Source: an uncultured Actinomycetes bacterium (lineage in GTDB: Bacteria > Actinomycetota > Actinomycetes > S36-B12 > CAIYMF01). Taken from it: a DNA stretch of 32,000 nt. Numbering within the stretch: position 1 is the stretch's first letter; each line of letters begins with the position of its first letter. Below, in pieces: positions 3,976 through 26,469 of the stretch. The notes beneath the pieces were generated by a model that saw only the letters and a list, made by a program, of their open reading frames with translations, had not been told where the DNA came from and ran no database searches. A program made the position numbers and the translations under genes. Where the stretch lies: the NCBI GenBank assembly GCA_963843975.1, contig CAWJMG010000001.1:810001-842000 (forward strand), in the 5' to 3' direction.

Positions 3976-3986
3976 GAGCTGGCCGG

Positions 3987-4328: not shown

Positions 4329-4347
4329 GGTCACCATTCCTGTCGCA

Positions 4348-8049: not shown

Positions 8050-8053
8050 TCCT

Positions 8054-8105: not shown

Positions 8106-8107
8106 GG

Positions 8108-8617
8108 CTAGAGGACGAGCAGCATGCGGTGGTTGCCGAGGGTGTTCGGCTTCACGCGCTCGAGGTCGAGGAACTCGGCCACGCCCTCGTCGTACGACCG
8201 CAGGAGCTGCTCGAAGACGTCGTGGTCGACGGGCGTGCCCTCGATCTCGACGAAGCCGTGCCGGCCGAAGAACTCGGTCTCGAAGGTCAGGCAGAAGACC
8301 TTCGCGACGCCGAGCTCACGCGCCCGCTCGATGAGCGCTGAGAGCAGCACGCTGCCGATGCCGGTGCCGACGAACCTCGGGTCGACCGCCACGGTGCGCA
8401 CCTCGGCGAGGTCCTCCCAGAACACGTGCACCGCGCCGCAGCCGACGACCTCGCCGTCGAGGTCGGCGACGAGGAACTCGGTGATGTCCTCGTAGAGCGC
8501 GACCGTCGCCTTGGACAGCAGGCGGCGCTCGGGCGCGTAGGTGTCGACGAGGCCGCGGATCGCTCGGACGTCGGCCGTGCGGGCGTGCCGGACGACGACG
8601 CGGGACGCCGGGCTCAT
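8108..8617 (-). CDS. Single-domain GNAT amino-acid N-acetyltransferase (short N-acetylglutamate-synthase-like type)
   Basis: 169 aa: [27 protein letters not shown]...[23 protein letters not shown]...[20 protein letters not shown]...[15 protein letters not shown]. From memory it closely resembles the mycobacterial short-form NAGS. Its ATG overlaps the lysS TGA (ATGA at 8614-8617). Confidence 0.75.
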
Positions 8618-10122: not shown

Positions 10123-10129
10123 GCGCGCA

Positions 10130-10170
10130 AGGTTATCGGGGCCCCGGAGCTGCTCTCGCACCGATAACGT
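10130..10170. promoter_or_regulatory. Divergent -10 elements (probable leaderless lysS and methyltransferase promoters) inside an inverted repeat
   Basis: Inverted repeat GTTATCGG (10132-10139) / CCGATAAC (10161-10168). TAACGT (10165-10170) lies 6 nt before the GTG at 10177. TAACCT on the minus strand (10130-10135) lies 7 nt before the lysS ATG at 10122. The intergenic region is only 54 bp and neither gene has a Shine-Dalgarno. Confidence 0.4.
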
Positions 10171-10176
10171 CGCGGC

Positions 10177-10926
10177 GTGACCGAGCCCAGCTACGAGGAC
10201 CGCCGCCTCTCCTTCGGGTCCGCCGCAAACCGGTACGACGCCCTGCGCCCCGGCTACCCGTCGTACGCCGTCGTCTGGGGCCTGCACGGCGCCACCCGCA
10301 CGGTCCGCGACGTCGCCGACGTCGGCGCCGGCACCGGCCTGTTCACCCAGCGCCTCGTCGACCTCGACCTCGAGGTGCGGGCCTTCGAGCCGGACGCCGG
10401 GATGCTCGACCAGCTCGGCGCGCGGCTGCCGGGGGTCGAGCGCGCCCAGGCCCCCGCCGAGTCGTTGCCGCTCCCAGACGCGTCCCTCGACGCGATCACC
10501 GCCGCCCAGGCCTGGCACTGGTTCGACCCGTCGGCCGCTGCCGCGGAGTTCACCCGGGTGCTGCGCCCGGGCGGCGTGGTGGTGCTCGTCTGGAACACCC
10601 GCGACACCCGCGTGCCGTGGATGGACGCGCTCTCCGACATCGTCGACGGCGGAGACTCCTTCCGGTCCAACCGCACCGAGGCGTTCGAGGCGATCGCCGC
10701 GGTCCACCCCGGGGTCGAGCGGGCCGACGTCCCGCACCGCGTCCTCATGACGCCGGACCAGGTGATCGGCCTGCTCTCGACGTACTCCTACGTGAACCTC
10801 CGCGAGGACGCCGACCACCTGTACGCCGCGGCCCGCGAGCTCATGGCCACGCACCCGGACACCCGCGGGCGGGCGCTGCTGGAGTTCCCGTACGTGACCG
10901 CGACGTACCGCTGGACGCGCCCCTGA
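10177..10926 (+). CDS. Class I SAM-dependent methyltransferase
   Basis: 249 aa with [16 protein letters not shown], motif [13 protein letters not shown], and AQAWHWFD (Methyltransf_11/25-like). Confidence 0.8.
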
Positions 10927-10952
10927 CACCCGCGCGGCGCCTCGGAAGGTGA

Positions 10953-10972
10953 CACCGACGTCGCCGTCGGTG
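10953..10972 (+). terminator. Short hairpin downstream of the methyltransferase gene
   Basis: CACCGACG-TCGC-CGTCGGTG, an 8-bp perfect stem, 27 nt after the stop codon. There is no U-tract. Confidence 0.3.
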
Positions 10973-11104
10973 AGGACACCTGTAGCGCAGCGCCGGATCC
11001 CCTCAGGATCCGCTCACCGGAGCCGATCGGGGTCTCGACCTGGGCGTCGCCTGTGCGACCGTCGAGGGCCAACCGACCGTCCTGCTGTCCTCCCAGGAGC
11101 ACCC

Positions 11105-12022
11105 GTGCGCCTCCGCGCCCTCGCCGCCCTCACCGCCGCCGCGGCCTCGCTCACCGTCGTCGCCGCCCCGGCCCAGGCCGTCGTCGCCCCCGACCGCGGT
11201 GCCGCATCCTCCGTGGTGCTCGACAAGGAGGCAGTCGGGATCCTCACGCACCGCGGCGCCACCAAGGCCGTCGCGACGACCTCCCAGATCACCTACCGGA
11301 AGGGCCCGGTCATGACCGCGGCCACCGGCAACAAGGTCTACATCGTCTGGTACGGCGCCTGGGCCCCCGCAGCGCAGACGATCGTCACCGACCTCGTCTC
11401 CTCGCTCGGCGGCTCGCCCCGGTGGGGCGTCAACGCGACGTACTACGACACCGCGAAGAAGTACGTCTCCAAGACGCTGACCCTCGCCGGCCAGACCGTC
11501 GACCTGGTCGACCGCGGCCTCGCGCTCTCGGACACCGCGATCCGCTCGGCCGTCACCGACGCCATCGCCGCCAACCGCCTCCCCGCTGACAAGGACGGCG
11601 TCTACCTCGTGCTGACCGCCGCCGGCGTCACGGCGACGAGCGGCTTCCTCACGCAGTACTGCGGCTGGCACACCTACACGACCGTGTCGACGACCCCGAT
11701 CAAGTACGGCTTCATCGGCGACCCGACCGGCGCCTCGCTCGGCAACTGCGCCATGCAGACCACGTCCTCCCCCAACGGCAACGCCGGCGTCGACGCGATG
11801 GCCAGCGTGATCGTGCACGAGCTCGACGAGGCCGTCTCCGACCCGCAGCTCAACGCCTGGTACGACGCCCGCGGCTACGAGAACGCCGACAAGTGCGCCT
11901 GGACCTTCGGCACGACGTACGCCGCGACCGGCGGCGGCATCGCGAACGTGAAGCTCGGCGCCCGCGACTTCCTGGTGCAGCGCAACTGGAGCGCGAAGAC
12001 GCAGACCTGCACGATGAGCTGA
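11105..12022 (+). CDS. Secreted EXORDIUM-like / phosphate-induced protein 1 (PHI-1) family protein
   Basis: GTG at 11105 with AGGAG 6 nt upstream. Signal peptide VRLRALAALTAAAASLTVVAAPAQA. The mature part aligns block by block with plant EXO as I recall it: ITYRKGPVM...VYIVWYGAW, LTLAGQTVD, VYLVLTAAGV...YCGWHT, SPNGNAGVDAM, and a C-terminal TQTCT. Confidence 0.7.
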   Translation: MRLRALAALTAAAASLTVVAAPAQAVVAPDRGAASSVVLDKEAVGILTHRGATKAVATTSQITYRKGPVMTAATGNKVYIVWYGAWAPAAQTIVTDLVSSLGGSPRWGVNATYYDTAKKYVSKTLTLAGQTVDLVDRGLALSDTAIRSAVTDAIAANRLPADKDGVYLVLTAAGVTATSGFLTQYCGWHTYTTVSTTPIKYGFIGDPTGASLGNCAMQTTSSPNGNAGVDAMASVIVHELDEAVSDPQLNAWYDARGYENADKCAWTFGTTYAATGGGIANVKLGARDFLVQRNWSAKTQTCTMS

Positions 12023-12043
12023 CGCTCACGGCTCACCGCGCGG

Positions 12044-12080
12044 CGAAGGCCCGGACCCCCGAGGGAGGTCCGGGCCTTCG
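12044..12080. terminator. Bidirectional intrinsic-terminator-like hairpin between convergent genes
   Basis: A 14-bp perfect stem CGAAGGCCCGGACC / GGTCCGGGCCTTCG with a 9-nt loop, between the EXO-like gene (+) and coaX (-). Confidence 0.6.
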
Positions 12081-12097
12081 GCACGTGTCGGGGATGG

Positions 12098-12856
<759 letters not shown>

Positions 12857-12910: not shown

Positions 12911-13819
12911 CTACAAGGGGCGGAGGTCGGCTCCGACGTCGAGGACGGGAGCGGAGTGCGTGAGGGCGCCGACGGCGATGTAGTCGACGCCGGTGGCCCC
13001 GACCTCGGCGGCGTCCGGCAGCGTCAGGCCGCCGGAGGCCTCGAGGAGGGCGCGCTCGCGGCCGTGCGCGGCGGCGTGCTCGCGCGCGATGCCGACGGCG
13101 AGACGCATCTGGTCGGGCTTGAAGTTGTCGAGCAGCACGAGGTCGGCGCCGGCGTCGAGCACCTCGGTCAGCTGGCCGAGCGAGTCGACCTCGACCTCGA
13201 CGGCGAGGCCGGGGAACATCGCGCGGACGGCCTCGAACGCCGCCGCCACTCCCCCGGCGGCGACCACATGGTTGTCCTTCACGAGCGCAGCGTCCGACAA
13301 CGACATCCGGTGGTTCACGCCGCCGCCGCAGCGCACGGCGTACTTCTCGAGCACGCGCAGGCCCGGTGTGGTCTTGCGGGTGTCGCGCACCTTGGCTCCG
13401 GTGCCCTCGAGCGCGTCGGCCCACTGCGCGGTCGCCGTCGCGACGCCCGAGAGGTGGCACAGCAGGTTGAGCGCGGTGCGCTCCGCGGTGAGCAGGTCCC
13501 GCGTGCGGCCCTGCGCCGTCACGAGGATGTCGCCGTGGCCGACGCGGGTGCCGTCCGGCGTCACGACCGAGACGGTCGCGTCGCCCTCGGACACGGCGTC
13601 GAAGACGGCGGCCGCCACGGGCGCCCCGGCGGACACGCCGGTGCCGCGCACGACGAGGTCGAGGGTCGAGCGCTGGTCGGCCGGCACCGTCGCCGTCGAC
13701 GTGACGTCCACACCGCCGTCGAGGTCCTCCGCCACGGTGGCGCGCACGAGCGCCTCGACGTACGCCGGATCGAGACCCGTCGACTCGAGGGCAGCCACCA
13801 CTCCAGCACTCAGGCTCAT
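12911..13819 (-). CDS. nadC: Nicotinate-nucleotide pyrophosphorylase (carboxylating)
   Basis: 302 aa from the ATG at 13819. It has TAERTALNLLCHLSGVAT, DTRKTTPGLR, KYAVRCGGGVNHR and VEVEVDSL. Its ATG overlaps the nadB TGA (ATGA). Confidence 0.92.
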   Translation of the reverse strand: MSLSAGVVAALESTGLDPAYVEALVRATVAEDLDGGVDVTSTATVPADQRSTLDLVVRGTGVSAGAPVAAAVFDAVSEGDATVSVVTPDGTRVGHGDILVTAQGRTRDLLTAERTALNLLCHLSGVATATAQWADALEGTGAKVRDTRKTTPGLRVLEKYAVRCGGGVNHRMSLSDAALVKDNHVVAAGGVAAAFEAVRAMFPGLAVEVEVDSLGQLTEVLDAGADLVLLDNFKPDQMRLAVGIAREHAAAHGRERALLEASGGLTLPDAAEVGATGVDYIAVGALTHSAPVLDVGADLRPL

Positions 13820-15483
13820 GCCTTCTCCTTCTCGGGCGCGACGAACGCGGCCTCGGGCACGTCCTCGCGGACGGTGACGAGCACCCCGTCCTCGTCGAGC
13901 CGCGAGACGAGCCGGACGTGCCAGCTCTCGTTGTCGGTGTCGGGGTAGTCCTCGCGCCAGTGCGACCCGCGAGTCTCCTTGCGCATCTTGGCGTTCGCGG
14001 CGAGCACGGTGGCCACCGCGTGCACGTTCGTTGTCTCCCACGCCTTGGACCGGGGGTCGCCGGTGACGCTGTCCGCCAGCGCGTCGAGGACCCCGAGCGT
14101 GGTCGACATCGAGTCGCGAGAGCGCAGCACTCCGACGCCCTCGGTCATCGCGACCTGGATCGAGCGGCGCGCTGCCTCGCTCATGAGGACGCCGTCGCCG
14201 CGCGGCGGCAGCGGGTCGCGACGCTCGGGCAGACCCTCGGCGAGGACGTCGCCGATGCGCGACGCGAACACGAGGCCCTCGAGCAGCGAGTTGGACGCGA
14301 GCCGGTTGGCGCCGTGGACACCGGTGCAGGCGCACTCGCCGACGGCGTACAGGCCGCGCACCGAGGAGCGGCCGTAGGCGTCGGTGCGCACGCCACCCGA
14401 CGCGTAGTGCTGCGCAGGGGCGACAGGGATGAGGTCCTTGCTCGGGTCGATGCCGATCTTGCGCAGCGAGGCGAGGATCGTGGGGAAGCGCTTCTCCCAC
14501 ATCTCGGTGCCGAACTCGCGGGCGTCGAGCCACACGTGCTTGGCGCCGGTCTCGCGCATGCGGCGCATGATGGCCTTGGCGACGACGTCGCGCGGGGCGA
14601 GGTCGGCGAGCGGGTGCTGGCCCTGCATGAACGCGATGCCCGCGTCGTCGCGCAGCACGGCGCCCTCGCCTCGCACGGCCTCGCTGACGAGCGGCTGCTG
14701 GCCCTCGGCGCCGCTGCCGGTCCAGAGCACCGTCGGGTGGAACTGGACGAACTCGAGGTCGGCCACCATCGCCCCGGCCCGCAGCGCGAGAGCGACGCCG
14801 TCGCCCGTGGCCACGGCAGGGTTCGTCGACATGCTGAAGACCTGGCCGAGGCCACCGGTCGCGAGGACGACCGCGGGCGCGAGCACCGCGCCGACACCGT
14901 CGTGCTGACCTTCACCCATGACGTGCAGCGTGAGGCCCTGCGCGGCACCGCGGTCGTCGACGAGCAGGTCGAGCGCGAGCGCGTTCTCGATCACGCGGAT
15001 GCCGGCCCTGCCCGCCACGGCCGCGACGAGCGCGCGCGAGATCTCGGCGCCGGTGGCGTCGCCTCCGGCGTGGGCGATGCGGTCGCGCAGGTGCCCACCC
15101 TCACGGGTGAGCGCGATGTCGCCGGACTCGTCGGTGTCGAAGCGCGCGCCGAGCGCGATGAGGCGGCGGACGGCGTCCGGGCCCTCGGTGACGAGCGCGT
15201 GCACGGCACCCGGGTCGCAGAGGCCGGCGCCGGCGACGAGGGTGTCGACCTCGTGCTCGGCGGGCGAGTCGTCCGGCGAGAGCGCGGCAGCGATGCCGCC
15301 CTGAGCCCAGCGGGTCGAGCCCTCGTCGACCTGAGCCTTGGTGACGATGAGGACGCGGTAGCCGGCGGCGCGGGCGTGCAGCGCGGTGGTGAGGCCCGCG
15401 ACCCCGGAGCCGACGACGACGACGTCGGCCTCGATCGTCCAGCCGGGGGCGGGAGCGGCGAGGCGCCGCGGGAGACGGATCAC
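13816..15483 (-). CDS. nadB: L-aspartate oxidase
   Basis: 555 aa from the GTG at 15483. It has the FAD motif DVVVVGSGVAGLTTAL, plus RWAQGGIAA, EFVQFHPT and HGANRLASNSLLEGLVF. Its GTG overlaps the TGA of the panC terminal frame (GTGA). Confidence 0.9.
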   Translation of the reverse strand: MIRLPRRLAAPAPGWTIEADVVVVGSGVAGLTTALHARAAGYRVLIVTKAQVDEGSTRWAQGGIAAALSPDDSPAEHEVDTLVAGAGLCDPGAVHALVTEGPDAVRRLIALGARFDTDESGDIALTREGGHLRDRIAHAGGDATGAEISRALVAAVAGRAGIRVIENALALDLLVDDRGAAQGLTLHVMGEGQHDGVGAVLAPAVVLATGGLGQVFSMSTNPAVATGDGVALALRAGAMVADLEFVQFHPTVLWTGSGAEGQQPLVSEAVRGEGAVLRDDAGIAFMQGQHPLADLAPRDVVAKAIMRRMRETGAKHVWLDAREFGTEMWEKRFPTILASLRKIGIDPSKDLIPVAPAQHYASGGVRTDAYGRSSVRGLYAVGECACTGVHGANRLASNSLLEGLVFASRIGDVLAEGLPERRDPLPPRGDGVLMSEAARRSIQVAMTEGVGVLRSRDSMSTTLGVLDALADSVTGDPRSKAWETTNVHAVATVLAANAKMRKETRGSHWREDYPDTDNESWHVRLVSRLDEDGVLVTVREDVPEAAFVAPEKEKA

Positions 15484-16350
15484 TCGTGGCCACCGATCGC
15501 GATGCGGGCGTTGTCGAGCAGGCGGGTGGTGCCGATGCGGACGGCGAGCAGAAGACGTGCCTCGCCCTGCTCCGGCGGGGCGCCGAGCATGGGGTCGGTG
15601 ACGACGGCGTAGTCGGTGACGATGCCGTCGTGGTCGTCGAGGAACGACTGCACCGAGCTGCACGACGTCACGCGCAGAGCCGCCCGAGCGCGCGACGCCG
15701 GACCCGACGTCGAGCGCGTGCGGCACGGTGAGAGCGAGGTGCCGGTCGGCGTCGCTGAGGTAGGCGTTGCGGCTCGACAGCGCGAGGCCGTCCTCGGCGC
15801 GCACGGTCGGGACGCCGACGACCTCCACCGGCAGGTCGAGGTCGTGGACCATGCGCTTCACGAGGACGAGCTGCTGGTAGTCCTTCTCGCCCAGCAGCAG
15901 GACGTCGGCGCGGGTGAGGTGCAGCAGCTTCTGCACCACGGTGAGCACGCCGCGGAAGTGGCCGGGGCGCACGGCACCTTCGAGCAGCGTGCCCATCGCA
16001 CCCGGATCGACGGTGATGGCCGGGTCGCCGCCTCGGTAGATCGTCTCGACCGTCGGCACGAAGACGAGGTCGACGCCTTCGCGTGCGCAGAGGTCGACGT
16101 CGTCCTCGAGCGAGCGCGGGTACTTGGCGAGATCCTCGTTCGCGCCGAACTGCGTGGGGTTCACGAAGACCGACGCCGTCACGTGGCCACCGGGCCCGGC
16201 GAGCACGCGACCGGCGCGCATGAGCTGCGCATGCCCGGCGTGCAGCGCGCCCATCGTCGGCACGAGGACGCGCTTCGTGCCGGGTGCGAGGCCGGCGTAC
16301 GCGGCCCGGAGCGAGGTGCGCGACTGCACCACCCTCGTCTCGCCGGTCAT
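15480..16350 (-). pseudogene. panC: Pantoate--beta-alanine ligase, frameshifted as sequenced (871 nt = 3n+1)
   Basis: The N-terminal ~225 aa (MTGETRVVQSR...PTMGALHAGHAQLM...VFVNPTQF...LSSRNAYL) are in the nadB frame. The canonical C-terminus (DGIVTDYAVVTDP...LLLAVRIGTTRLLDN) is in a different frame (track ORF 15480-15671). The switch is near 15640-15690. This may be a sequencing indel rather than true decay. Confidence 0.7.
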
Positions 16351-17261
16351 CGCGTCTCCTCCTCGGTGCGGACGAGCACGTCGAGCAGAGCCTCGGCGCT
16401 CGACGCCTTCAACGTTCCTGCCGCGAGCGCGCGGTCGGCGGTGACCCGCGCGAGCGCGACGTACGCCGTGCGCGCCTCCGTCGACACCTCGCCGATCGCA
16501 CGCACGTGCGCAGCGACCGTACCCGCGTCGCCGCGCGCGACGGGGCCAGTGAGTGCGGCGTCGCCCTGGCGCAGCGCGTTGTCGAGAGCCGCCGACATCA
16601 GCGGCGCGACGAGACGTGCGGGGTGCTCGACGCCCGCTGCGGCGAGCAGGTCGAGGGTCTGCGCGACGAGCGTGACGAGGTGGTTGGCGCCGTGCGCGAG
16701 GGCCGCGTGGTACAGCGTGCGGCTGCCCTCCTCGACCCAGACCGGGTCGCCGCCCATCTCGACGACCAGGGCCTCGGCGACCGGGCGCAGCTGGTCGGGA
16801 GCGGTGACGCCGAACGGGCAGCCGGTGAGGCGCGCGAGGTCGAGGGACGTGCCGGTGAGGGTCATCACCGGGTGCAGCGCGAGCGGCAGCGTGCCCTGAC
16901 GCGTGGCGGGATCGAGCACGCCGTAGCCGTGGCGTCCGCTGGCGTGCGCGACGAACTGGCCGGTGCGAAACGACCGCGTCTCGGCGAGGCCGGCGACCAG
17001 CCCGGGCAGCACGTCGTCCGGCACCGTGAGCAGAACGAGGTCGGAGGCGGCCAGCACGTCGACCACGGGCACGAGCGGCACACCGGGCAGCAGGGCCTCG
17101 GCGCGCAGCCGGCTGGTGTCGCTGACGGCGTACGCCGCGACCACAGGGTGCCCCGCGCGGGCGAGAGCGGCGCCGAGCACGGCACCTGCGCGACCGGTGC
17201 CGACGACGCCGACGGACAGGCGCGGCGGTGCGCCGTCCTGCACGGGCTGGGCGTCGGTCAC
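16347..17261 (-). CDS. Rossmann-fold oxidoreductase-like protein (DUF2520-type), conserved upstream of panC
   Basis: A GxGxxG motif, VGVVGTGRAGAVLGAAL, lies near the N-terminus. The GTG at 17261 has GAGAGG 6 nt upstream. The stop overlaps the panC ATG (ATGA). The exact start is uncertain. Confidence 0.65.
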   Translation of the reverse strand: MTDAQPVQDGAPPRLSVGVVGTGRAGAVLGAALARAGHPVVAAYAVSDTSRLRAEALLPGVPLVPVVDVLAASDLVLLTVPDDVLPGLVAGLAETRSFRTGQFVAHASGRHGYGVLDPATRQGTLPLALHPVMTLTGTSLDLARLTGCPFGVTAPDQLRPVAEALVVEMGGDPVWVEEGSRTLYHAALAHGANHLVTLVAQTLDLLAAAGVEHPARLVAPLMSAALDNALRQGDAALTGPVARGDAGTVAAHVRAIGEVSTEARTAYVALARVTADRALAAGTLKASSAEALLDVLVRTEEETR

Positions 17262-17351
17262 GTGCGGCCTCTCGTTCCGGTCCGCGTGGGTACCGGTCGC
17301 TGACTGGGGTGGGCGTGCGTCTGCCGAACACAGCCAGCCTAACGACGCCGG

Positions 17352-17357
17352 TAGCGT
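17352..17357 (+). promoter_or_regulatory. -10 hexamer TAGCGT positioned for a leaderless MidA-family gene transcript
   Basis: TAGCGT ends 6 nt before the GTG at 17364, placing it at -12..-7 if transcription starts at the start codon. No Shine-Dalgarno is present. Confidence 0.4.
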
Positions 17358-17363
17358 GCCGCT

Positions 17364-18401
17364 GTGCCGACCGTGCCCCACTCTTCCGACGCCGCTGCCG
17401 CGGCGCCGTGGTCGGTCGCGTGGCGGCAGGCCGCGTCGACGTTCTACGCCGGTGCCGACGGCCGCTCCGCGCAGGATCCGGCGTCGCACTTCCGCACCTC
17501 CGCCCATGTGGGGCCCGCGCTCGGTGCGGCCCTCGCGCAGCTGCTCCTCGAGGTCGACGCATCACTCGGGCGTCCCGACCCGCTCGACCTCGTCGACGTC
17601 GGCACCGGCCACGGCGAGCTGCTCGTGTCGGTGCTCGCGGCACTCCCGCCGTCGGTCGGCTCGCGGCTGCGGATCACCGCTGTCGACGTACGCCGTCGCC
17701 CGGTCGGCCTCGAGCCGCGCATCCGCTGGATCGAGGGCTGGGCGCCCGACGCCGTGCCACGCGGGGTCCGCGGCCTGCTCGTCGCGCACGAGCTGCTCGA
17801 CGACGTCCCGTGCGATGTTGTCGAGGTGGACGACGCGGGTGCTCCTCGGCTCTTGCTCGTCGACGCGGCGGGAGGCGAGACCCTCGGGCCCGCGCTCACC
17901 GACGACGACGCCTGGACGTCGTACGGCCTTGACGCTTCACGCGCTCGCGCGTGGCTGTCGGCCTGGTGGCCGCTCGCGTCGCCGGGCGACCGTGCTGAGA
18001 TCGGCCTCTCGCGCGACGACCTGTGGCAGGAGGTCGTGTCGTGCGTCGACGCCGGCATCTCGCTCGCCGTCGACTACGGCCACGTGCGCGAGGCGCGTCC
18101 GTCGCAGGGCACTCTCACCGGCTACCGCTCCGGCGACGTCGTGGCCGCAGTGCCCGACGGCACGTGCAACCTCACCGCGCACGTCGCCGTCGACGCCGTC
18201 GCCCACCGCGCGGGCGCGTCGGTCGTACGTCAGCGCGACGCGCTCCTGGCGCTCGGCGTCGACGCCTCTCTGCCGGACCACGCGCTCTCGGTCAGCGATC
18301 CCCCGGCGTACCTCGACGCGCTCGCTGCGTCGTCCCAGGCCGCCGAGCTGCTCGACCCGACCGGCCTCGGCGCCTTCTGGTGGCTCCGCACCGACGTCTG
18401 A
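17364..18401 (+). CDS. SAM-dependent methyltransferase, MidA / NDUFAF7 (DUF185) family
   Basis: 345 aa. HFRTSAHVGPALGAALA, LVDVGTGHGELL, VAHELLDDVPCDVV, AVDYGH...QGTLTGYRSG...DGTCNLTAHVAVDAV follow the family's conserved blocks as I recall them. Confidence 0.7.
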   Translation: MPTVPHSSDAAAAAPWSVAWRQAASTFYAGADGRSAQDPASHFRTSAHVGPALGAALAQLLLEVDASLGRPDPLDLVDVGTGHGELLVSVLAALPPSVGSRLRITAVDVRRRPVGLEPRIRWIEGWAPDAVPRGVRGLLVAHELLDDVPCDVVEVDDAGAPRLLLVDAAGGETLGPALTDDDAWTSYGLDASRARAWLSAWWPLASPGDRAEIGLSRDDLWQEVVSCVDAGISLAVDYGHVREARPSQGTLTGYRSGDVVAAVPDGTCNLTAHVAVDAVAHRAGASVVRQRDALLALGVDASLPDHALSVSDPPAYLDALAASSQAAELLDPTGLGAFWWLRTDV

Positions 18402-18403
18402 CC

Positions 18404-18455
18404 CGATTTGGTAGTGCTAGAGCGTCACGGGTGACGCTCTAGCACTACCAAATCG
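18404..18455. repeat. Palindromic extragenic element, copy 2 (likely terminator of the MidA-family gene)
   Basis: CGATTTGGTAGTGCTAGAGCGTCAC-GG-GTGACGCTCTAGCACTACCAAATCG gives perfect 25-bp arms. It starts 2 nt after the stop codon. The outer 17 nt are identical to copy 1 and the inner stem is different. Confidence 0.75.
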
Positions 18456-18515
18456 TCGGGGCGTGCTGTGGTCGTGCGGCTGCGGGCGACGTACGGTGGC
18501 AGGGAGGTGAGCGCG

Positions 18516-18722
18516 ATGAGCGAGACCGACACCGCACGGTGGGACGGCGAGGGCGGGCAGCCGCCCGTGCACTCCTACGCCTGGTTCCTCGTCGAGGTCG
18601 CGCACGCCGACCGCGACGAGCTCCGCGAGCTGTGGTCGCTGGCCGTGGCCAAGCTCGGCCACGACGAGGCCTCGCGCCTGTGGCAGGAAGCGCTGTCGGC
18701 GTCCGACGCCAGCGAGACCTAG
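18516..18722 (+). CDS. Small hypothetical protein (68 aa)
   Basis: The ATG at 18516 is preceded by GGGAGG 8 nt upstream. Sequence: MSETDTARWDGEGGQPPVHSYAWFLVEVAHADRDELRELWSLAVAKLG... Third-position GC is high. Confidence 0.5.
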   Translation: MSETDTARWDGEGGQPPVHSYAWFLVEVAHADRDELRELWSLAVAKLGHDEASRLWQEALSASDASET

Positions 18723-18729
18723 CCGCCCG

Positions 18730-20205
18730 TCAGTCGAGCGAGCCGGGGGCCGGCAGGACGGTCGTGCCCGTGGAGACGTCGCCCGCATCGCCAGGGGACG
18801 CGGCCGCATCCGGTACGTCGACGGCAGGGGCACCGGTCGGCGCGGCCCAGCGCAGCGAACGGTCCGCGGCGCGCGCGGCCGCAGCACGGTCGGCCTGCTC
18901 CTGCGCGATCCGGCGTACCTCGCCCGCGTCGCGGTGGTGCGCGGTGATCTTCACGGCGCCCGGAGTCGAGTCGACGTGCAGCGAGGCGAGGCCGAGCGAG
19001 CGCTGCCACGGGCCCTGGGTGACGCGCACCGACTGCGTGCGCGCGTGCGGCACGACCTCCCAGCGCTCCACGATCCGGCCGCCGCGCGCCACGAAGACCT
19101 CGTCGGTCCAGCCGACTGCCAGCTGGCGCCACTGGATCCACGCGCGCTTGCGCGAGCGCTCGGGCGCGGGGATCAGCGGGATCGACATGATGTCGACGCC
19201 GGGCAGCACGCGCCCGACGATCGCGAGCGCGACCGGCCATGGCGCGACCGGGAGCAGCACGTTCTCGGTGTACGACTGGTCGCCGCTTCCCTGCGAGCCG
19301 GACGCCGCACCCGCGATGTTCAGCCGCACGCGCACCCAGCCGCGCTTGCGCCACAGGACCGGCTGCACGAAGCCCACGGCCTGCACGCGGCCCGGCGGCA
19401 CGGTCTGACGGGTGCGCTGCAGCAGGCCGTGCCGCAGCCGCAGGCCGTCCGGCGACTCGGCCACCGTGAAGTCGTAGTAGCGCGAGAACTGCGTGAAGAC
19501 GCCGAAGATCGGCACGCCACCGATGACCACGAAGATCAGACCGGCGGGCCCGGCCGTGATCAGCGTGACCGTGACGAGGAAGACCGTGGCGAGCAGCAGT
19601 GCGAACGTCTCGAGCCGCAGCAGCAGCGACAGGACGAGGTCGCCCGGGGGCACCTTCGCGAGCAGCGTCTCGGGGGCCTCCTCGGCGTCGTGGCGTACGC
19701 CGGCCGAGCGCGCGATCACCTCGTTGCGCAGCGCGTTGGCCTCGGCGAGCGTGAGGAACTGCAGGTTCTGCCGCGAGTCGCCGGCGCCTGCGACCTCGAT
19801 GCGCACCTCGGCGAGACCGGCGAGCCGCGCGAGCAGCGGCTGCAGCACGTCCACCGACTGCAGGCGCGAGACCTGCAGGCGCCGCTCCTGCTTGGTGAGG
19901 ACGCCGGACTGCACGCGCAGGTCGCCGTCGTCGTCGAACCAGAACGACAGCCGCTGCCACTCGAGGTAGTTCCAGAAGACCGCGAGCGACGTGATCAGAA
20001 CGAGGACGCCGCCGCCGATCGCGATGGCCGATCCACCGACGCTCACCTCCATCTGCCCGGGCAGGGCGACGACGGCGACCAGCACGGCCGGCCACCAGCG
20101 CACCGCCTGGATCACCGGCGTCAGCGGATGCACGCGCCGACGGCCGTGCTGGTCGGGGCCGGTCGGCTTGAAGACCTCGAACGAGAGCGGGTCCTGCTCG
20201 CTCAC
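18730..20205 (-). CDS. YdbT-like membrane protein with repeated bacterial PH (bPH_2) domains
   Basis: 491 aa from the GTG at 20205. TM hairpins alternate with three repeats of the pattern 'R.....V....R.Q.V...Q....R..GL..L'. Its GTG overlaps the ydbS-like TGA (GTGA). Confidence 0.7.
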   Translation of the reverse strand: MSEQDPLSFEVFKPTGPDQHGRRRVHPLTPVIQAVRWWPAVLVAVVALPGQMEVSVGGSAIAIGGGVLVLITSLAVFWNYLEWQRLSFWFDDDGDLRVQSGVLTKQERRLQVSRLQSVDVLQPLLARLAGLAEVRIEVAGAGDSRQNLQFLTLAEANALRNEVIARSAGVRHDAEEAPETLLAKVPPGDLVLSLLLRLETFALLLATVFLVTVTLITAGPAGLIFVVIGGVPIFGVFTQFSRYYDFTVAESPDGLRLRHGLLQRTRQTVPPGRVQAVGFVQPVLWRKRGWVRVRLNIAGAASGSQGSGDQSYTENVLLPVAPWPVALAIVGRVLPGVDIMSIPLIPAPERSRKRAWIQWRQLAVGWTDEVFVARGGRIVERWEVVPHARTQSVRVTQGPWQRSLGLASLHVDSTPGAVKITAHHRDAGEVRRIAQEQADRAAAARAADRSLRWAAPTGAPAVDVPDAAASPGDAGDVSTGTTVLPAPGSLD

Positions 20206-20741
20206 AGCCCGGCCGACCTCTCCTCGCCGCGGCGGGCGAGCCGGTCGCGCAGGTCGGCCGCGATCTGCGGAGTCAGGCCAGGGATGCGCGCGTCGCTCGT
20301 GGCCGCAGCCGTGTGCAGCTGCACGGTGGTGATGCCGAGGGCGCGGTGCAGCGGGCCGGCCGTGACGTCTACCAGCTGCATCCGGCCGTAGGGCACGATC
20401 ACCAGGCGGCGGAAGAGGATCCCGCTCGTGACGAGCAGGTCGTCGGCTCGCTCGGCGTACCCCCACGAGGTCACGCGGCGCCCGATCACGATCCAGATCC
20501 ACACGAACGCGACCAGCGCGACCACCGCGATCACGAGCGGGATCACTCGAGGTACGTCGGGGATGAGGAACAGGCCGCCGCACACCAGCAGCACTCCGAG
20601 GCCGAACGAGATCGCGAGCTCGATGCGGTAGGCACGGGCGAGCACGGGCGACACCCGCACCCACTCGCCTCCCGGCGGTCGGAACACCTCGGCGACCGAG
20701 GTGGTGGCGGCGGCTGGCACGGCGTTCTCGGCGGCGTCCAC
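20202..20741 (-). CDS. YdbS-like PH-domain (bPH_2) membrane protein
   Basis: 179 aa. Two TM helices are followed by LLVTSGILFRRLVIVPYGRMQLVDVTAGPLHRALGITTVQLHTA. Confidence 0.7.
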   Translation of the reverse strand: MDAAENAVPAAATTSVAEVFRPPGGEWVRVSPVLARAYRIELAISFGLGVLLVCGGLFLIPDVPRVIPLVIAVVALVAFVWIWIVIGRRVTSWGYAERADDLLVTSGILFRRLVIVPYGRMQLVDVTAGPLHRALGITTVQLHTAAATSDARIPGLTPQIAADLRDRLARRGEERSAGL

Positions 20742-20747
20742 GATCCG

Positions 20748-20753
20748 ACCCTA
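20748..20753 (-). promoter_or_regulatory. -10 hexamer TAGGGT positioned for a leaderless ydbS-like transcript
   Basis: On the minus strand TAGGGT ends 6 nt before the GTG at 20741. No Shine-Dalgarno is present. Confidence 0.35.
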
Positions 20754-20789
20754 AACCCGCCTCCGGAAGGCGTCTGACACGATCGGCGC

Positions 20790-21965
20790 ATGACTGCGGT
20801 GCGGCACGAGGTGGTGCTGTCGGTGGGCTCGGGCCTCCCGGTGCCCGCCCGCGACGGCCTGCCCACGCGGGGCCTCGACCTCGGCGCCGCCCACCCGTCC
20901 AGCCACGGCGTGATCCAGCTGCGCATCGTCGCCGAGGGCGACCGCATCGTGGAGGCCGAGCCGCGCATCGGCTTCCTGCACCGCGGCGCGGAGAAGCTCT
21001 TCGAGGTGCGCGACTACCGCCAGGCGATGGTGCTCGCGAACCGGCACGACTGGCTGTCGGCGTTCGGCAACGAGCTCGGCATCGCCCTGGCGGTCGAGCG
21101 GATGCTCGGCATGGAGGTGCCGGAGCGGGCGGTCTGGCTGCGCACCCTGCTCGCCGAGCTGAACCGCGTCCTGGTGCACCTCGCCTTCCTCGGGTCGTTC
21201 CCCGCGGGCACGGGCATCGCGACACCCGCCCACCACCTCGCCGAGGAGCGCGAGGCCGTGCAGCAGGTGCTCGAGGAGGCCACCGGCGGCCGCATGCACC
21301 TCATGTTCAACCGCGTCGGCGGTCTGCGCGAGGACGTGCCGGCCTCGTGGACCGCGCACGTGCACGACGCGATCCCCGCCGTGCGCGCCGGGCTCGAGAA
21401 GGTCGCGGCGTTCCTCGCGACCGATGATGCACGCGCGGCCACTCGCGGCGTCGGAGTGCTCACGCCCGAGCAGGTGCTGGCGTACGGCGTCTCCGGCCCG
21501 ATGGCCCGCGCGGCGGGCGTCGACCTCGACCTCCGGCGCGACGACCCCTACCTGGCGTACGCGGACCTCCTCGCGAGCGGCACCCTCCGCGTCGTCACCC
21601 GCACCGAGGGCGACGCGCTCGCGCGCCTCGAGGTGATGCTCGGGCAGGCCGAGGTGTCGCTCGACGTCGTGGCCGCGTGCGCCGACCGGCTCGACGCGAT
21701 CGGCCCGGCACCGGTGAACCTCAAGCTGCCCAAGGTGCTGCGCGCACCCGAGGGCATGACCTACGTCTGGACCGAGAGCCCGCTCGGCACGAGCGGCTGG
21801 CTGCTCGTCTCGCGGGCGGAGAAGACGCCGTGGCGGCTCGGGCTGCGCAGCGCGTCGTTCAGCAACGTCGCGGTCCTCGGCGAGCTCCTGGTCGGCGAGC
21901 GGGTGGCCGACCTCGTGACGATCCTCGCGACCTGCCCGTACGTCGTCGGCGACGTCGACGCGTAG
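20790..21965 (+). CDS. Orphan NADH-quinone oxidoreductase subunit D (NuoD / 49-kDa / NDUFS2) paralog
   Basis: 391 aa. [65 protein letters not shown] and C-terminal YVVGDVDA track the NuoD family throughout. No other nuo gene is adjacent. Confidence 0.8.
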
Positions 21966-21967
21966 CC

Positions 21968-21984
21968 GACGATCACCGATCGTC
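21968..21984 (+). terminator. Small hairpin just after the NuoD-like stop codon
   Basis: GACGATC-ACC-GATCGTC, a 7-bp stem, 2 nt after the TAG. It is weak and has no U-tract. Confidence 0.25.
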
Positions 21985-22089
21985 ACGGATGAGCGACATC
22001 CGGCGACGCAGAGTGAATACGCACACCCGATGGTGCGGAGATCGTGCGCAACCCGTGCATCTTCGGGCCTTCCGGGGGATCATCGGCCC

Positions 22090-22515
22090 GTGGACGCAGA
22101 CCCCTTCGGCGCGAGCCAGGACGTCGCGACGATCGCCGAGCTGGCCCGCCAGTTCGGTCATCACGCCGGCCGAGCCTGGTTCTCCGGCGCGCGCGCCGAC
22201 GAGGCCGCGGGCAACGTCACGGTCTACCGCGTCCCCAACCACGCCTTCGACGACGAGCTGCACCTGCTCCTCGGCACCGACGTCCCCGTGCTGCTGCGGG
22301 ACGCCCGCTTCACCCGCGACGAGCTGATCGTGGCGCGCGAGGAGGCCTGGGCCTTCGGCGACGACCTGCAGATCGACGCCATCACGATCCCGGACGACGG
22401 AAGCGGCATCAACGTGTTCGTGCACGTGCCCGTCGACGACGCGCAGTCCGTGCTCAACCGCACGCTCCCCGGCATCGCCCGCGCGCACGACGCGCGCCTC
22501 GGCGTCACCGTCTGA
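22090..22515 (+). CDS. Hypothetical protein (141 aa)
   Basis: Third-position GC is high from the GTG at 22090 onward and poor between 22030 and 22089, so I prefer 22090. GGGGGA lies ~12 nt upstream. I recognise no family and there is no signal peptide. Confidence 0.55.
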   Translation: MDADPFGASQDVATIAELARQFGHHAGRAWFSGARADEAAGNVTVYRVPNHAFDDELHLLLGTDVPVLLRDARFTRDELIVAREEAWAFGDDLQIDAITIPDDGSGINVFVHVPVDDAQSVLNRTLPGIARAHDARLGVTV

Positions 22516-22548
22516 CGCGACGCCGCACGCCGGCCGGCCAGTGGCCGA

Positions 22549-22920
22549 CTAGTGGAACGGATGCTCGCGGACCTCGTCCAGCGAGCGGATGCGCGCGGCC
22601 AGCGAGCGCATGACCTGCAGCGCGAACGTCGGCGTCTCATGCACGAGGAAGATGAACGTGCGCTCGTCGATGACGGCGACCAGCGAGGGCTCGGCCGCGA
22701 CGGCGGTCAGGCTGCGCGGCGCCTTGCTGATGATGGCCAGCTCGCCGAACGTGTCGCCGGGAACGAGCGTGGTGACGACGTCGTCGCCGTCGCGCAGCTC
22801 GATGCTGCCCCGCACGACGCCGAACATCTGAGCGCCGGTGTCGCCGGCGTTGAACACGACGTCACCCGCCTCGAGCTCGCGGGTCTCCTTCGCACTGGCG
22901 AACACGCCCTGCACCGTCAT
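22549..22920 (-). CDS. Stand-alone cyclic-nucleotide-binding (CAP/CRP effector) domain protein
   Basis: 123 aa with GDVVFNAGDTGAQMFGVVRGSIEL ... PGDTFGELAIISKAPRSLTAVA (phosphate-binding-cassette-like). There is no HTH or other output domain. GAGGAGG lies 8 nt upstream of the ATG. Confidence 0.75.
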   Translation of the reverse strand: MTVQGVFASAKETRELEAGDVVFNAGDTGAQMFGVVRGSIELRDGDDVVTTLVPGDTFGELAIISKAPRSLTAVAAEPSLVAVIDERTFIFLVHETPTFALQVMRSLAARIRSLDEVREHPFH

Positions 22921-24259: not shown

Positions 24260-24322
24260 CGTCCCACGGCGCTCCCCCGCTCGTCCAAGGGACGTCCAAG
24301 ATCCGGGGACGCTTCGTCCGAT
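24260..24322 (+). promoter_or_regulatory. Helically phased direct repeats (candidate OmpR-family response-regulator operator)
   Basis: CGTCC starts at 24260, 24282, 24293 and 24315, giving spacings of 22, 11 and 22 bp. The central pair are exact 8-mers, CGTCCAAG x2. The site lies between the divergent starts at 24212 (-) and 24372 (+). Confidence 0.45.
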
Positions 24323-24371
24323 GGACCGGTCGGAAGCGCTCGGAGCGCCGGTGACCTGCAACGATGGGCCC

Positions 24372-25070
24372 GTGCACATTCTGCTGGTGGAGGACGACGC
24401 GGCCCTGGCCGCATCCGCGGTCGACGGGCTCACGGCCCAGGGGTTCACGGTCGAGCATGTCGCGACGGGCCAGGCCGCCCTCTCGGCGGTCGCTGCAGGC
24501 GCCTCGGCGTTCGACGTCGTGCTCCTCGACCTCGGCCTTCCCGACATCGACGGCCAGGAGGTCTGCCGTCGGATGCGCTCGACGTCGGACGTCCCGATCA
24601 TCGTCGTGAGCGCCCGCGGCGACGAGGCGGACCGCGTGATCGCCCTCGAGCTCGGCGCGGACGACTACCTGACCAAGCCGTACGGCATGCGCGAGCTCGC
24701 TGCCCGCATCCGCGCCGTCATGCGCCGCGCAGCCACCCCGGCCACCAGCTCCACCCCGACTGCCGGGGCCGCAGCGGCCGGCACGCAGGAGCTCGGCCGC
24801 CTCGCGATCGACCGCCGCACGCAGCGCGTGCACGTCGACGGCGTCGAGGTGCAGCTCACGGCGAAGGAGTTCGACGTCCTCGCCTACCTGGCCGAGGACC
24901 CGGGCGCCGTCCGCCGCCGCACCGAGATCCTCGAGCACGTGTGGGACGGCCACTGGTACGGCGCCACGAAGACGGTCGACGCGCACGTCGCGGCGATCCG
25001 CAAGAAGCTCGGCGACCCCGCCTGGGTGGAGGCCGTGCGCGGCGTCGGGTTCCGGCTCGGCTCCCCGTGA
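24372..25070 (+). CDS. OmpR/PhoB-family response regulator
   Basis: Receiver domain (VHILLVEDD ... VVLLDLGLPDIDG ... SARGDE...LELGADDYLTKP) plus a winged-helix domain (LTAKEFDVLAYLAE...VRGVGFRL). Alternative in-frame starts are at 24351 and 24321. Confidence 0.88.
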   Translation: MHILLVEDDAALAASAVDGLTAQGFTVEHVATGQAALSAVAAGASAFDVVLLDLGLPDIDGQEVCRRMRSTSDVPIIVVSARGDEADRVIALELGADDYLTKPYGMRELAARIRAVMRRAATPATSSTPTAGAAAAGTQELGRLAIDRRTQRVHVDGVEVQLTAKEFDVLAYLAEDPGAVRRRTEILEHVWDGHWYGATKTVDAHVAAIRKKLGDPAWVEAVRGVGFRLGSP

Positions 25071-25092
25071 CGCGCGGCGCGGCGGCAGCCGA

Positions 25093-26469
25093 ATGAGGTG
25101 GCGACTCATCGCGGTGCTCGTGGGCTTCACCGCGATCGTCCTGCTCGTGCAGAACGTGCCGCTCGCCCAGTACCTCCGCACGGTCGAGTACGACCGCATC
25201 GTCACCGGCCTGCAGCGCGACGCCTTCGCGATCGCCGGCCTCGCGGTCGAGAGGCTGGAGTCCGAAAAGGGCGCCATCACCGACGCCGAGCTCGACGCCG
25301 TCGTCGAGGAGTACGCCAAGAGCACGGGTGCTGTCGTCGTCATCGTGGACAGCACGGGCGTGGCGATCGCCGCCTCGGACGACAGCGTGGGCGAGTCCTA
25401 CGCCAATCGTCCGGAGATCCAGGCGGCGATCGACGAGGGCCGCGCGGTCTCCGGTCAGCGCGAGTCGCAGACGCTCGGCGAGCCACTTCTGTTCGTCGCG
25501 GTTCCCGTGCGGGCCAGCACCACGACCAACCTCGGCGCGGTGCGCCTCAGCTATCCGGTGAGCGCGATCGACGAGGTGGTCAACGGCCGCGTCCGCGGTC
25601 TCTTCGTCGCTGCAGCGATCACGCTCCTCGCCGCTGCCATCATCGCCGCACTCGTGGCGGCCGCGGTCACCCGCCGCATCCGTCGCCTGCGCGACGCCGC
25701 CGAGGACATCGCCGAGGGCGACCTCACCGCCCGCGCCGACGTGACCGGCAGCGACGAGATCGCCGAGCTCGCGGACTCGTTCAACACGATGGCCGACCGC
25801 GTGCAGCACGTCGTCGAGTCGCAGAAGGGCTTCGCGGGCGACGCGTCGCACCAGCTGCGCACACCGCTCGCCACGCTGCGGCTGCGCCTCGACCGCACCG
25901 CCGAGCTGCTGGAGGAGGACGACCCGGCGGCGGAGCAGGTGGACGCCGCTCGCGACGAGATCGACCGCCTCGGCCGGCTGGTCGACGGCCTCCTCATGCT
26001 GGCCCGCGCCGACGGGCGCGAGCAGGAGACCGTGCCCGTCGACATCTCGGCCGTCGCGCGCGACCGCGTGGAGTCATGGGTGCCGCTCGCCGCAGAGCGC
26101 GACGTCACCATCGTGCTCGACTCCCCCGGCATGGCCGTCGCGCACGCGGTTCCCAGCGCGGTCGAGCAGATCGTCGACAACTACGTCGACAACGCGCTCG
26201 ACGTCGTGCCGGACGGCAGCCGGATCGTCGTGACCGTGCGCAGCAGCCCGGACGGCGTCACGTTGCTCGTCGACGACGAGGGGCCGGGCCTGTCGCAGGA
26301 GGACCGCGAGCGCGCGTTCGACCGCTTCTGGCGCGGCCGTCAGGACGGCGGCGGCAGCGGCCTCGGCCTCGCCGTGGTCGCCTCGCTCGCGGCGGCAGGC
26401 GGCGGCAGCGTCTGGCTCGCGGAGTCGCCCGCCGGCGGCCTCCGAGCCTGCGCGAAGTTCAGGATCTAG
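25093..26469 (+). CDS. Sensor histidine kinase (TM - extracytoplasmic domain - TM - HAMP - HisKA - HATPase_c)
   Basis: 458 aa. H-box ASHQLRTPLATLRL, N-box IVDNYVDNAL, DDEGPGL, GSGLGLAVV. Two TM segments flank a ~150-aa sensor domain. Confidence 0.88.
   Translation: MRWRLIAVLVGFTAIVLLVQNVPLAQYLRTVEYDRIVTGLQRDAFAIAGLAVERLESEKGAITDAELDAVVEEYAKSTGAVVVIVDSTGVAIAASDDSVGESYANRPEIQAAIDEGRAVSGQRESQTLGEPLLFVAVPVRASTTTNLGAVRLSYPVSAIDEVVNGRVRGLFVAAAITLLAAAIIAALVAAAVTRRIRRLRDAAEDIAEGDLTARADVTGSDEIAELADSFNTMADRVQHVVESQKGFAGDASHQLRTPLATLRLRLDRTAELLEEDDPAAEQVDAARDEIDRLGRLVDGLLMLARADGREQETVPVDISAVARDRVESWVPLAAERDVTIVLDSPGMAVAHAVPSAVEQIVDNYVDNALDVVPDGSRIVVTVRSSPDGVTLLVDDEGPGLSQEDRERAFDRFWRGRQDGGGSGLGLAVVASLAAAGGGSVWLAESPAGGLRACAKFRI

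Follow-up and report, generated by a model that had tools for sequence, protein, structure and literature searches.

In mitochondria the methyltransferase NDUFAF7 dimethylates Arg-85 of NDUFS2, a complex I subunit of the NuoD family (Rhein 2013). A 32-kb stretch of contig CAWJMG010000001.1 from an uncultured member of the Actinomycetes, referred to at its full length as the window, carries genes of the same two families on the same strand with 2388 bp between them: one for a MidA-like methyltransferase, and one for a NuoD paralogue that is here called NuoD2. The locus thus raises the question of whether the two genes encode an enzyme and its substrate, and, if so, in what kind of complex that substrate resides. 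That the MidA-like and NuoD2 genes are functionally coupled is highly probable. The reading favoured here, with moderate confidence, is that they represent an actinobacterial version of the NDUFAF7-NDUFS2 system, in which NuoD2 would reside within a second complex-I-like enzyme that has no N-module.

The genes concerned, together with one neighbour used for comparison, are as follows (positions are those of the window).

17364-18401, plus strand: MidA/COG1565-family S-adenosylmethionine (SAM)-dependent methyltransferase of a divergent actinobacterial subfamily (345 residues, PF02636), the proposed NuoD2 arginine methyltransferase
18468-18722, plus strand: small open reading frame (ORF) of 84 residues from a GTG, or 68 residues from an internal ATG (G+C content at third codon positions, GC3, 0.92)
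18730-20205, minus strand: YdbT-like membrane protein (PF03703 bPH_2 in three stretches, E=1.5e-35)
20202-20741, minus strand: YdbS-like membrane protein (PF03703 bPH_2, one domain, E=6e-14)
20790-21965, plus strand: NuoD2, a NuoD/NDUFS2 paralogue of the RHDW clade defined below (391 residues, PF00346)
20982-20984, plus strand: Arg65 codon of NuoD2, in FLHRGAEK, the equivalent of NDUFS2 Arg-85
16347-17300, minus strand: Rossmann-like/DUF2520 gene, the divergent neighbour of the MidA-like gene (PF10727 and PF10728), belonging to the pan-side context and lying outside the proposed module

The ydbS start at 20741 and the NuoD2 start at 20790 are divergent across a 48-bp spacer. A first-pass annotation of this DNA, made from the sequence alone, had proposed the pairing, and its coordinates, strands, intergenic distance, spacer and Arg65 codon all proved correct on re-check.

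The two proteins

The MidA-like and NuoD2 ORFs are considered real genes because both have coding-type GC3 (0.89 and 0.97, respectively) and homologues in the hundreds. The family assignments of the first-pass annotation were borne out by hidden Markov model (HMM) searches. The MidA-like protein matches Pfam PF02636 Methyltransf_28 with E=3.9e-21 and 76.1 bits, against a cut-off of 23.3, over profile positions 2-237 of 249. An AlphaFold model of the protein, computed from 39 subfamily sequences, has a predicted local distance difference test score (pLDDT) of 92.3, and its six best PDB matches in Foldseek are all COG1565/MidA structures (4G67, 4F3N, 5ZTZ, 5ZU0, 1ZKD; E from 1e-19 to 6e-16, template modelling (TM) score 0.65-0.72), with the seventh-ranked match being a generic methyltransferase (E=6e-6, TM 0.34). 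The motif VDVGTGHGEL (V77-D78-V-G-T-G82-H-G84-E-L) is presumably the glycine-rich SAM-binding motif I, an assignment made from general knowledge of class I methyltransferases, and G82 and G84 are invariant in the 39 subfamily members. Judged by profile and predicted fold, homology is clear, and the protein belongs to the MidA fold family as part of a divergent actinobacterial subfamily.

NuoD2 matches Pfam PF00346 Complex1_49kDa with E=1.6e-52 and 178.7 bits, and scores under every NCBIfam NuoD equivalog cut-off (NF004739, 301.1 versus 360; TIGR01962, 281.4 versus 459; NF008974, 291.5 versus 522). Its AlphaFold model has a pLDDT of 88 and a TM score of about 0.8 to complex I NuoD/NDUFS2 chains. 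HMMER alignment of NuoD2 to Thermus Nqo4 and mitochondrial 49-kDa subunits splits in two stretches at a complex-I-specific segment (Nqo4 ~315-335, SMEAVIYHFK), where about 25 residues are missing from NuoD2, and sets Trp88 against the quinone-ligating tyrosine (Nqo4 Y87, Yarrowia Y144).

The large and distinct RHDW clade to which NuoD2 belongs was defined by searching the whole library and then surveying 150 cluster representatives for motifs. Its signatures are HR[GS]xEK, [NDS]RHDW in place of the canonical DR[LM]DY, and a C-terminal GD[IVL]D[KR] in place of the canonical GE[IV]DR; the complex-I-specific region is 27-31 residues long in RHDW proteins as compared to 51-53 in canonical NuoD, and all organism-named members are from Actinomycetota. 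Residues were counted in 40 NuoD2 family members that share 39-90% identity. Invariant among them are H64, R65, E68, R85, H86, D87, W88, D388 and D390, the tryptophan at the tyrosine position thus occurring in 40/40. The equivalent of Nqo4 H38, which is H39 in the window protein, is retained in 25/40, and the remaining quinone-site (Q-site) equivalents are present in 2/40 (D139) or in none (F146, 0/40; D401, 0/40). Mean pairwise distance is 0.17 for NuoD2, 0.24 for the DUF2520 neighbour and 0.35 for the MidA-like protein. By these sequence criteria NuoD2 is a strongly constrained protein and yet not a standard quinone-reducing subunit: with the Q-site remodelled by the exchange of Tyr for Trp and the loss of the Asp139, Phe146 and Asp401 equivalents, the resulting enzyme is probably not a standard quinone reductase. 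The same Tyr-to-Trp change in site-directed mutants severely cuts quinone reductase activity (PMC4758237).

Two further observations concern this pocket. The invariant residues 64-68, 85-88 and 388-390 of NuoD2 (window 20979-20993, 21042-21053 and 21951-21959) align with the NiFe-ligand motifs of hydrogenases, and two of them, His86 and Asp388, are RHDW-specific replacements of Met/Leu and Glu, respectively; this clade-specific constellation could form a new ligand or metal site. Secondly, Y87W in a 'NuoD' of piericidin-producing Streptomyces has been read as natural inhibitor resistance (Degli Esposti 2015, PMC4758237). Because a Trp-type NuoD2 paralogue is present at every Streptomyces locus sampled, that observation could reflect paralogue confusion with NuoD2.

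Linkage of the MidA-like and NuoD2 genes

If the two proteins are partners, their genes should be found together elsewhere. A MidA-anchored sample was drawn by a genome scan with the MidA-subfamily alignment, taking the best 80 of 587 relatives plus five loci, and by tblastn a NuoD-like gene lies within 10 kb of the MidA gene in 85/85 of these loci. Gap statistics were gathered by tblastn with the window proteins over 170 NuoD2 loci and 117 MidA loci, the latter from six or more actinobacterial orders and with their genes arranged in five ways. NuoD2 accompanies MidA at 117/117 MidA loci, with a median gap of 107 bp and 79% of pairs within 500 bp, whereas the DUF2520 gene accompanies MidA at 91/117, with a median gap of 4.7 kb and 24% within 500 bp. 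For NuoD2 and ydbS, the corresponding figures are 79/170 NuoD2 loci, 298 bp and 94%. The MidA-NuoD2 pair is found in Streptomyces, Kitasatospora, Micromonosporaceae, Actinomadura, Microbispora, Herbidospora, Knoellia, Cryptosporangium, Microlunatus and Nanopelagicales-like metagenome-assembled genomes (MAGs), in the following arrangements.

(a) MidA then NuoD2, co-directional and adjacent, without ydbS/T: some Streptomyces, Kitasatospora, Micromonosporaceae, Actinoplanes and Plantactinospora
(b) MidA and NuoD2 convergent and adjacent, 3' ends sometimes overlapping, with ydbS/T divergent from NuoD2: most Streptomyces
(c) MidA - P450 - (ydbT - ydbS) - NuoD2: Knoellia, Actinomadura, Microbispora, Herbidospora and Cryptosporangium
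(d) MidA - ydbT - ydbS - NuoD2: the window and its relatives
(e) MidA and NuoD2 6-8 kb apart: a few loci

MidA-to-NuoD2 operons, with 18-19 bp between the genes, occur in Microlunatus (L087) and on a metagenome contig (L088). The conserved linkage on which the first-pass annotation had staked its proposal was thus seen at every MidA locus, with many pairs adjacent or operonic, and across rearrangements. The linkage of MidA and NuoD2 is real and is tighter than background synteny.

A NuoD2-anchored sample, obtained by searching the RHDW alignment against metagenome contigs and keeping 15 loci with at least 4 kb on either side, gave a different proportion. MidA is present in 11/15 and absent from 4/15 (Luteococcus sp. 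OSA5, L086, and loci L097, L137 and L149), the absences being confirmed by profile HMM, and at least three of the four MidA-less loci resemble breakpoints that part the pan side of the region from the fol side. The coupling is therefore asymmetric, MidA never occurring without NuoD2 and NuoD2 sometimes occurring without a nearby MidA, which fits a dedicated modifier.

Two other kinds of gene recur beside the pair. A cytochrome P450 gene lies between the MidA-like and NuoD2 genes at loci L003 (8065-9276), L005 (6264-7487) and L170 (10846-12090), as well as at L019, L020, L022, L079, L107, L120 and L135; the P450s share 46-48% identity between lineages, are often divergent from NuoD2 or ydbS/T, and are absent from the window and from most Streptomyces. 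The recurrent P450 could hint at a small-molecule link. In Streptomyces and Actinomadura, a DUF7134-HisKA_3 kinase and a GerE-type response regulator are encoded directly beside the MidA-like gene (L001, 12308-14274; L002, 7929-9882; L005, 3160-5087).

Arg65 as a candidate methyl acceptor

The first-pass annotation had placed the modified arginine in the LHRGxEK motif, and this mapping is upheld by two lines of evidence. The tryptic peptide KCDPHIGLLHR ends at NDUFS2 Arg-85, for which Thr64 of Thermus thermophilus Nqo4 is the orthologous residue (Rhein 2013), and in the HMMER alignment Arg65 of NuoD2 stands opposite Nqo4 Thr64 and hence at the Arg-85 position. Mammals, yeasts and Paracoccus denitrificans dimethylate the equivalent arginine and Escherichia coli does not, and in Thermus, which has Thr at the acceptor position, the space is filled by an arginine of NuoB (Carroll 2013; Hameedi 2021). 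The mark is symmetric dimethylarginine in both mitochondria and Paracoccus. Bacterial MidA proteins are consequently not as devoid of a described function as the first-pass annotation had assumed: dimethylarginine is known in P. denitrificans Nqo4, and an alphaproteobacterial MidA homologue has been proposed, in silico only, as the Nqo4 methyltransferase that makes the mark.

Arg65 is invariant among NuoD2 family members (40/40). By comparison, Mycobacterium smegmatis has IGYLHTGIEK ... TRMDYLSPF in its canonical NuoD (8e9g_D), with Thr at the acceptor site and a normal Tyr, and the canonical-type NuoD representatives nearest to the NuoD2 query also have HTG. From these sequences, with the canonical actinobacterial residue read in the one species, the canonical subunit would be unable to take the mark, at least in M. 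smegmatis, while the paralogue always could; by extension, the same may hold in the genomes that carry MidA. A distinct idea, in which NuoD2 is swapped as an isoform into the canonical 14-subunit complex I, was set aside, as NuoD2 is without the complex-I-specific segment and an Arg-bearing D subunit would not fit a Thermus-type NuoB whose own arginine fills that space.

NuoD2 and its possible place in a second Nuo complex

The absence of other nuo genes nearby was one of the features that had made the locus seem unusual, and Pfam-based gene annotation indeed finds none in the window besides NuoD2. Nor are there any beside NuoD2 in the roughly 10 loci for which Pfam-annotated gene lists were made, the rest of the 170 being screened by tblastn with the window proteins alone. 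NuoD2 is nevertheless an orphan only by position. It shares about 61-65% identity with proteins of Streptomyces loci that are sited between panC and folK beside a HisKA_3 kinase, and in S. coelicolor SCO3392 is annotated as 'NADH dehydrogenase subunit NuoD2', with SCO3383 as panC, SCO3390 as a two-component sensor kinase and SCO3401 as folK. By sequence and by synteny, NuoD2 of the window is the orthologue of SCO3392. According to two transcriptome papers, streptomycetes carry a second set of nuo genes, nuoA2, B2, D2 and H2-N2, which has no N-module and is contiguous except for nuoD2. The 'orphan' label of the first-pass annotation therefore stands for gene position and fails for membership, given the SCO3392 orthologue in a second nuo set and a Trp-type NuoD found in an 11-subunit operon context.

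That second case is provided by a protein from locus L172 (P0307), a Trp-type NuoD with HRGYEK, NRIDW and GDVDR motifs that is 38% identical to the window NuoD2. Its gene sits in a nuoA-B-C-D-H-I-J-K-L operon (5848-12224) located 3' of a heliorhodopsin gene (3795-4598) on a contig that ends at nuoL, and the NuoB of this operon keeps all four cysteine ligands of cluster N2. The arrangement matches the heliorhodopsin context of Candidatus Actinomarina described in a preprint, where an 11-subunit nuo operon is followed by NDUFAF7/PF02636 (bioRxiv 10.1101/2021.02.01.429150); the NDUFAF7 gene in this context is known from the preprint alone. The nearest non-RHDW relative of NuoD2 (P0286) is short, has HRG and Tyr, and is encoded in a nuoA-B-C-D-H-I operon.

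Taken together, these sequences suggest that D subunits of the Trp type that bear the arginine are components of N-module-less, complex-I-like enzymes of actinobacteria, that MidA-type genes travel with them, and that both genes, D2 and MidA, were relocated to the fol-pan region in most Actinomycetes. By analogy with the Streptomyces annotation and the Actinomarina-like operon, the case for NuoD2 being a subunit of a Nuo2 complex in the organism of the window itself is evenly balanced.

Proposed mechanism

From this pattern we infer methyl transfer, its site and the Nuo2 partnership in this organism, and the scheme would run as follows. With SAM as donor, the MidA-like enzyme would methylate NuoD2 at Arg65, in the HRGxEK loop. 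NuoD2 would be the D-type subunit of a second complex-I-like enzyme without N-module, the nuoA2, B2 and H2-N2 partners of which are encoded elsewhere in the genome, as in Streptomyces; this step is drawn from the Streptomyces annotation and the Actinomarina-like operon. By analogy to complex I, the loop with the modified arginine would pack onto a NuoB2-type partner at its Fe-S cluster site and so aid docking or assembly. The resulting enzyme would have a remodelled acceptor pocket, with Trp88 and His86, and hence may act on a substrate other than the standard quinone. Methylation of Arg65, considered as a step in its own right from the sequence and the mitochondrial precedent, is rated at even to slightly better than even.

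Several points weigh against this scheme. Most NuoD, NdhH and hydrogenase relatives retain the arginine of HRGxEK irrespective of its methylation, and it is kept in all four NuoD2 loci without a nearby MidA; because it is so widely conserved whether methylated or not (in E. coli it is not), the presence of Arg65 alone is weak evidence. The MidA-like protein is very distant from characterised enzymes, phmmer against the PDB giving E=0.0019 for 1ZKD and E=0.31 for Dictyostelium MidA (5ZTZ), so that substrate and site specificity are not confidently transferable from NDUFAF7. The MidA-NuoD2 loci are dominated by Streptomyces and represent far fewer independent events than 117, and both genes sit where two conserved housekeeping blocks meet, which makes the linkage in part inherited synteny. 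In a mirror-tree comparison, r(MidA, NuoD2)=0.85 versus r(MidA, DUF2520)=0.89, and partial correlations do not single out the pair. Finally, the nuo2 partners are those stated by the papers for Streptomyces, and coverage of the window genome is 32 kb.

Alternative explanations

The MidA-like enzyme could act on another protein, on nucleic acid, or on a small molecule, for example an intermediate of quinone or cofactor synthesis, with NuoD2 serving as a partner, a scaffold or a co-regulated gene. The strong divergence from NDUFAF7 would be in keeping with another substrate, as would the embedding of the cluster among cofactor genes (fol, pan, nad), the P450 that recurs between or beside the pair in Knoellia, Actinomadura, Microbispora, Herbidospora, Cryptosporangium and several metagenome loci, and the preliminary DNA methylation by Wolbachia MidA described in one paper. 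However, arginine methylation of the NuoD orthologue is the one activity established for this family, and it specifically predicts a NuoD paralogue as universal neighbour, whereas the P450 is absent from most loci, the window included. A different substrate is unlikely.

Also unlikely is a stand-alone module, in which NuoD2 would be a soluble or peripheral protein without the Nuo membrane arm, docked on YdbS/YdbT and modified or regulated by the MidA-like enzyme; the former NiFe/quinone pocket might then provide such a protein with a new His/Asp site (H86, D87, D388, D390). A window without other nuo genes would be expected of it, as would the divergent neighbourhood of NuoD2 and ydbS (at most 500 bp apart in 94% of ydbS-bearing loci), the replacement of Q-site residues by an invariant R-H-D-W and G-D-x-D constellation, and a NuoD2 more conserved than its DUF2520 neighbour (0.17 versus 0.24). 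Against it, ydbS/ydbT are missing in 26/80 MidA-anchored loci while MidA and NuoD2 remain adjacent, the Streptomyces annotation places the gene in the nuo2 set, and in the Actinomarina-like operon a Trp-type NuoD is a normal operon member beside an N2-bearing NuoB. The same counts bear on the three-part module of methyltransferase, NuoD-like protein and membrane partner suggested by the first-pass annotation: the membrane partner is close to NuoD2 where it is present, and it is not obligatory. A more elaborate form of the idea is less likely still, namely that NuoD2 acts outside any Nuo complex as a free-standing protein with a new His/Asp site (H64-R65, R85-H86-D87-W88, D388, D390), docked on YdbS/YdbT and switched by MidA-type arginine methylation. 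If true, a free-standing, methylation-switched NuoD2 would be a new bacterial enzyme or sensor under the control of protein arginine methylation.

It is improbable that the two genes are simply passengers of the conserved ftsH-fol...pan-coaX-clpC region with no direct functional link: all loci do sit in this region, the MidA-less NuoD2 loci do resemble pan/fol breakpoints in at least three of four cases, and DUF2520 gives a mirror-tree signal at least as strong, but adjacency outlasts the inversions and insertions that part MidA from DUF2520 by kilobases (medians of 107 bp versus 4.7 kb), the 18-19 bp operons exist, Actinomadura keeps the pair together although the pan side is gone, and the same family pair is linked in the very different context of an 11-subunit nuo operon (bioRxiv 10.1101/2021.02.01.429150).

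Other features of the window

The window has a G+C content of about 72% and is actinobacterial, its nearest named relatives being Longivirga aurantiaca and Candidatus Nanopelagicales MAGs. Its housekeeping genes run clpC ... lysS - coaX - nadC - nadB - panC - DUF2520, then the junction, then DUF3180 - folK - folP - folE - ftsH, with the MidA-like gene, the small ORF, ydbT, ydbS and NuoD2 forming the junction between the pan side and the fol side. The YdbS/YdbT pair conforms to its family in having one and three bPH_2 domains and in being encoded by overlapping genes, the two reading frames sharing a GTGA start/stop overlap. The small ORF at 18468-18722, for which the 68 residues first given hold from the internal ATG and 84 from the GTG, has no match in Pfam or NCBIfam, and its homologues, sought by tblastn in related loci, are confined to the closest relatives L006 (88%) and L010 (67%). 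It is lineage-specific, and its membership in the module is doubtful. A scan of 17000-22700 for promoters and terminators found nothing, using a consensus unsuited to high-GC actinobacteria.

On the 3' side of NuoD2 follow a 161-aa ORF, a gene for a cyclic nucleotide (cNMP)-binding protein and a two-component system. The 161-aa ORF (22030-22515, plus strand) has coding-like GC3 and no Pfam or NCBIfam match, is kept in L006 (69%) and L007 (42%), and is lineage-specific. The two-component pair is of the HAMP-HisKA/OmpR type (24321-26469) and is unrelated to the pair beside the MidA-like gene in Streptomyces and Actinomadura.

On the other side, panC (15492-16332, minus strand) is frameshifted, with PanC residues ~11-226 in frame -3 (16332-15673) and ~242-287 in frame -1 (15620-15492), as a result of which the ORF finder gives a single 1275-aa ORF (13816-17643) through nadB and panC. 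The frameshift is either an assembly error or the mark of a pseudogene. The panD gene is absent from the window and present in Knoellia (L003). Further afield, a 719-aa protein (1379-3538, plus strand) has only a weak match to a spermine/spermidine-synthase domain (E=8.8e-8), and 10898-12022 (plus strand) encodes a protein of the Phi_1 (phosphate-induced protein 1) family, which is more familiar from plants.

Relation to known systems and significance

What is already known comprises the mitochondrial enzyme-substrate pair, its presumed presence in alphaproteobacteria, the Streptomyces nuoD2 gene, and the remark of one preprint on NDUFAF7 beside a nuo operon. The pair in the window resembles the mitochondrial one in consisting of the same two families, with the same HRGxEK acceptor position and a SAM-dependent, seven-beta-strand methyltransferase fold. 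It differs in that the subfamily of the enzyme has diverged very far (E=0.31 against Dictyostelium MidA), that the presumed substrate is a paralogue with Trp for Tyr and without the segment of about 25 residues, and that the genes are neighbours here and not in eukaryotes. With the alphaproteobacterial MidA (1ZKD) and P. denitrificans Nqo4 it shares a bacterial setting, the same arginine of subunit D being symmetrically dimethylated there; the Paracoccus substrate is canonical, however, whereas here the arginine is found in the paralogue and the canonical NuoD of M. smegmatis has Thr.

The separation of nuoD2 from the other nuo2 genes has likewise been noted in the literature on Streptomyces, whose NuoD2 (SCO3392) corresponds to that of the window in sequence and in its position between panC and folK. 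The searchable literature on Streptomyces NuoD2 is silent on the neighbouring MidA-like gene, on the exchange of Tyr for Trp and on arginine methylation, and a main-text literature search for SCO3391-3394 returned nothing. The Candidatus Actinomarina operon is similar in linking a MidA-family gene to an N-module-less nuo set, in the HRGYEK motif and Trp of its NuoD, and in the N2 cysteines of its NuoB, but there NuoD, with NRIDW, is encoded inside the operon, whereas NuoD2 and MidA of the window lie in the fol-pan region. In the searchable literature, no description was found of a phylum-wide MidA-NuoD2 pairing, of the RHDW/Trp clade, or of an acceptor arginine confined to the paralogue.

Bacterial protein arginine methylation has scarcely been documented, and the conserved pair occurs in the genetically tractable Streptomyces. 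The pairing, seen in a phylum remote from the lineage of mitochondria, is independent evidence at the genome level that enzymes of the MidA type act on NuoD-type proteins, and so bears on the proposed 'proteobacterial origin' of the arginine modification. It also draws attention to a widely conserved complex-I-like system of Actinomycetota, the D subunit of which has Trp for the quinone-binding Tyr. The conserved pair suggests that bacteria reuse the arginine-methylation system known from mitochondrial NDUFAF7 and NDUFS2 on a little-studied second complex-I-like enzyme.

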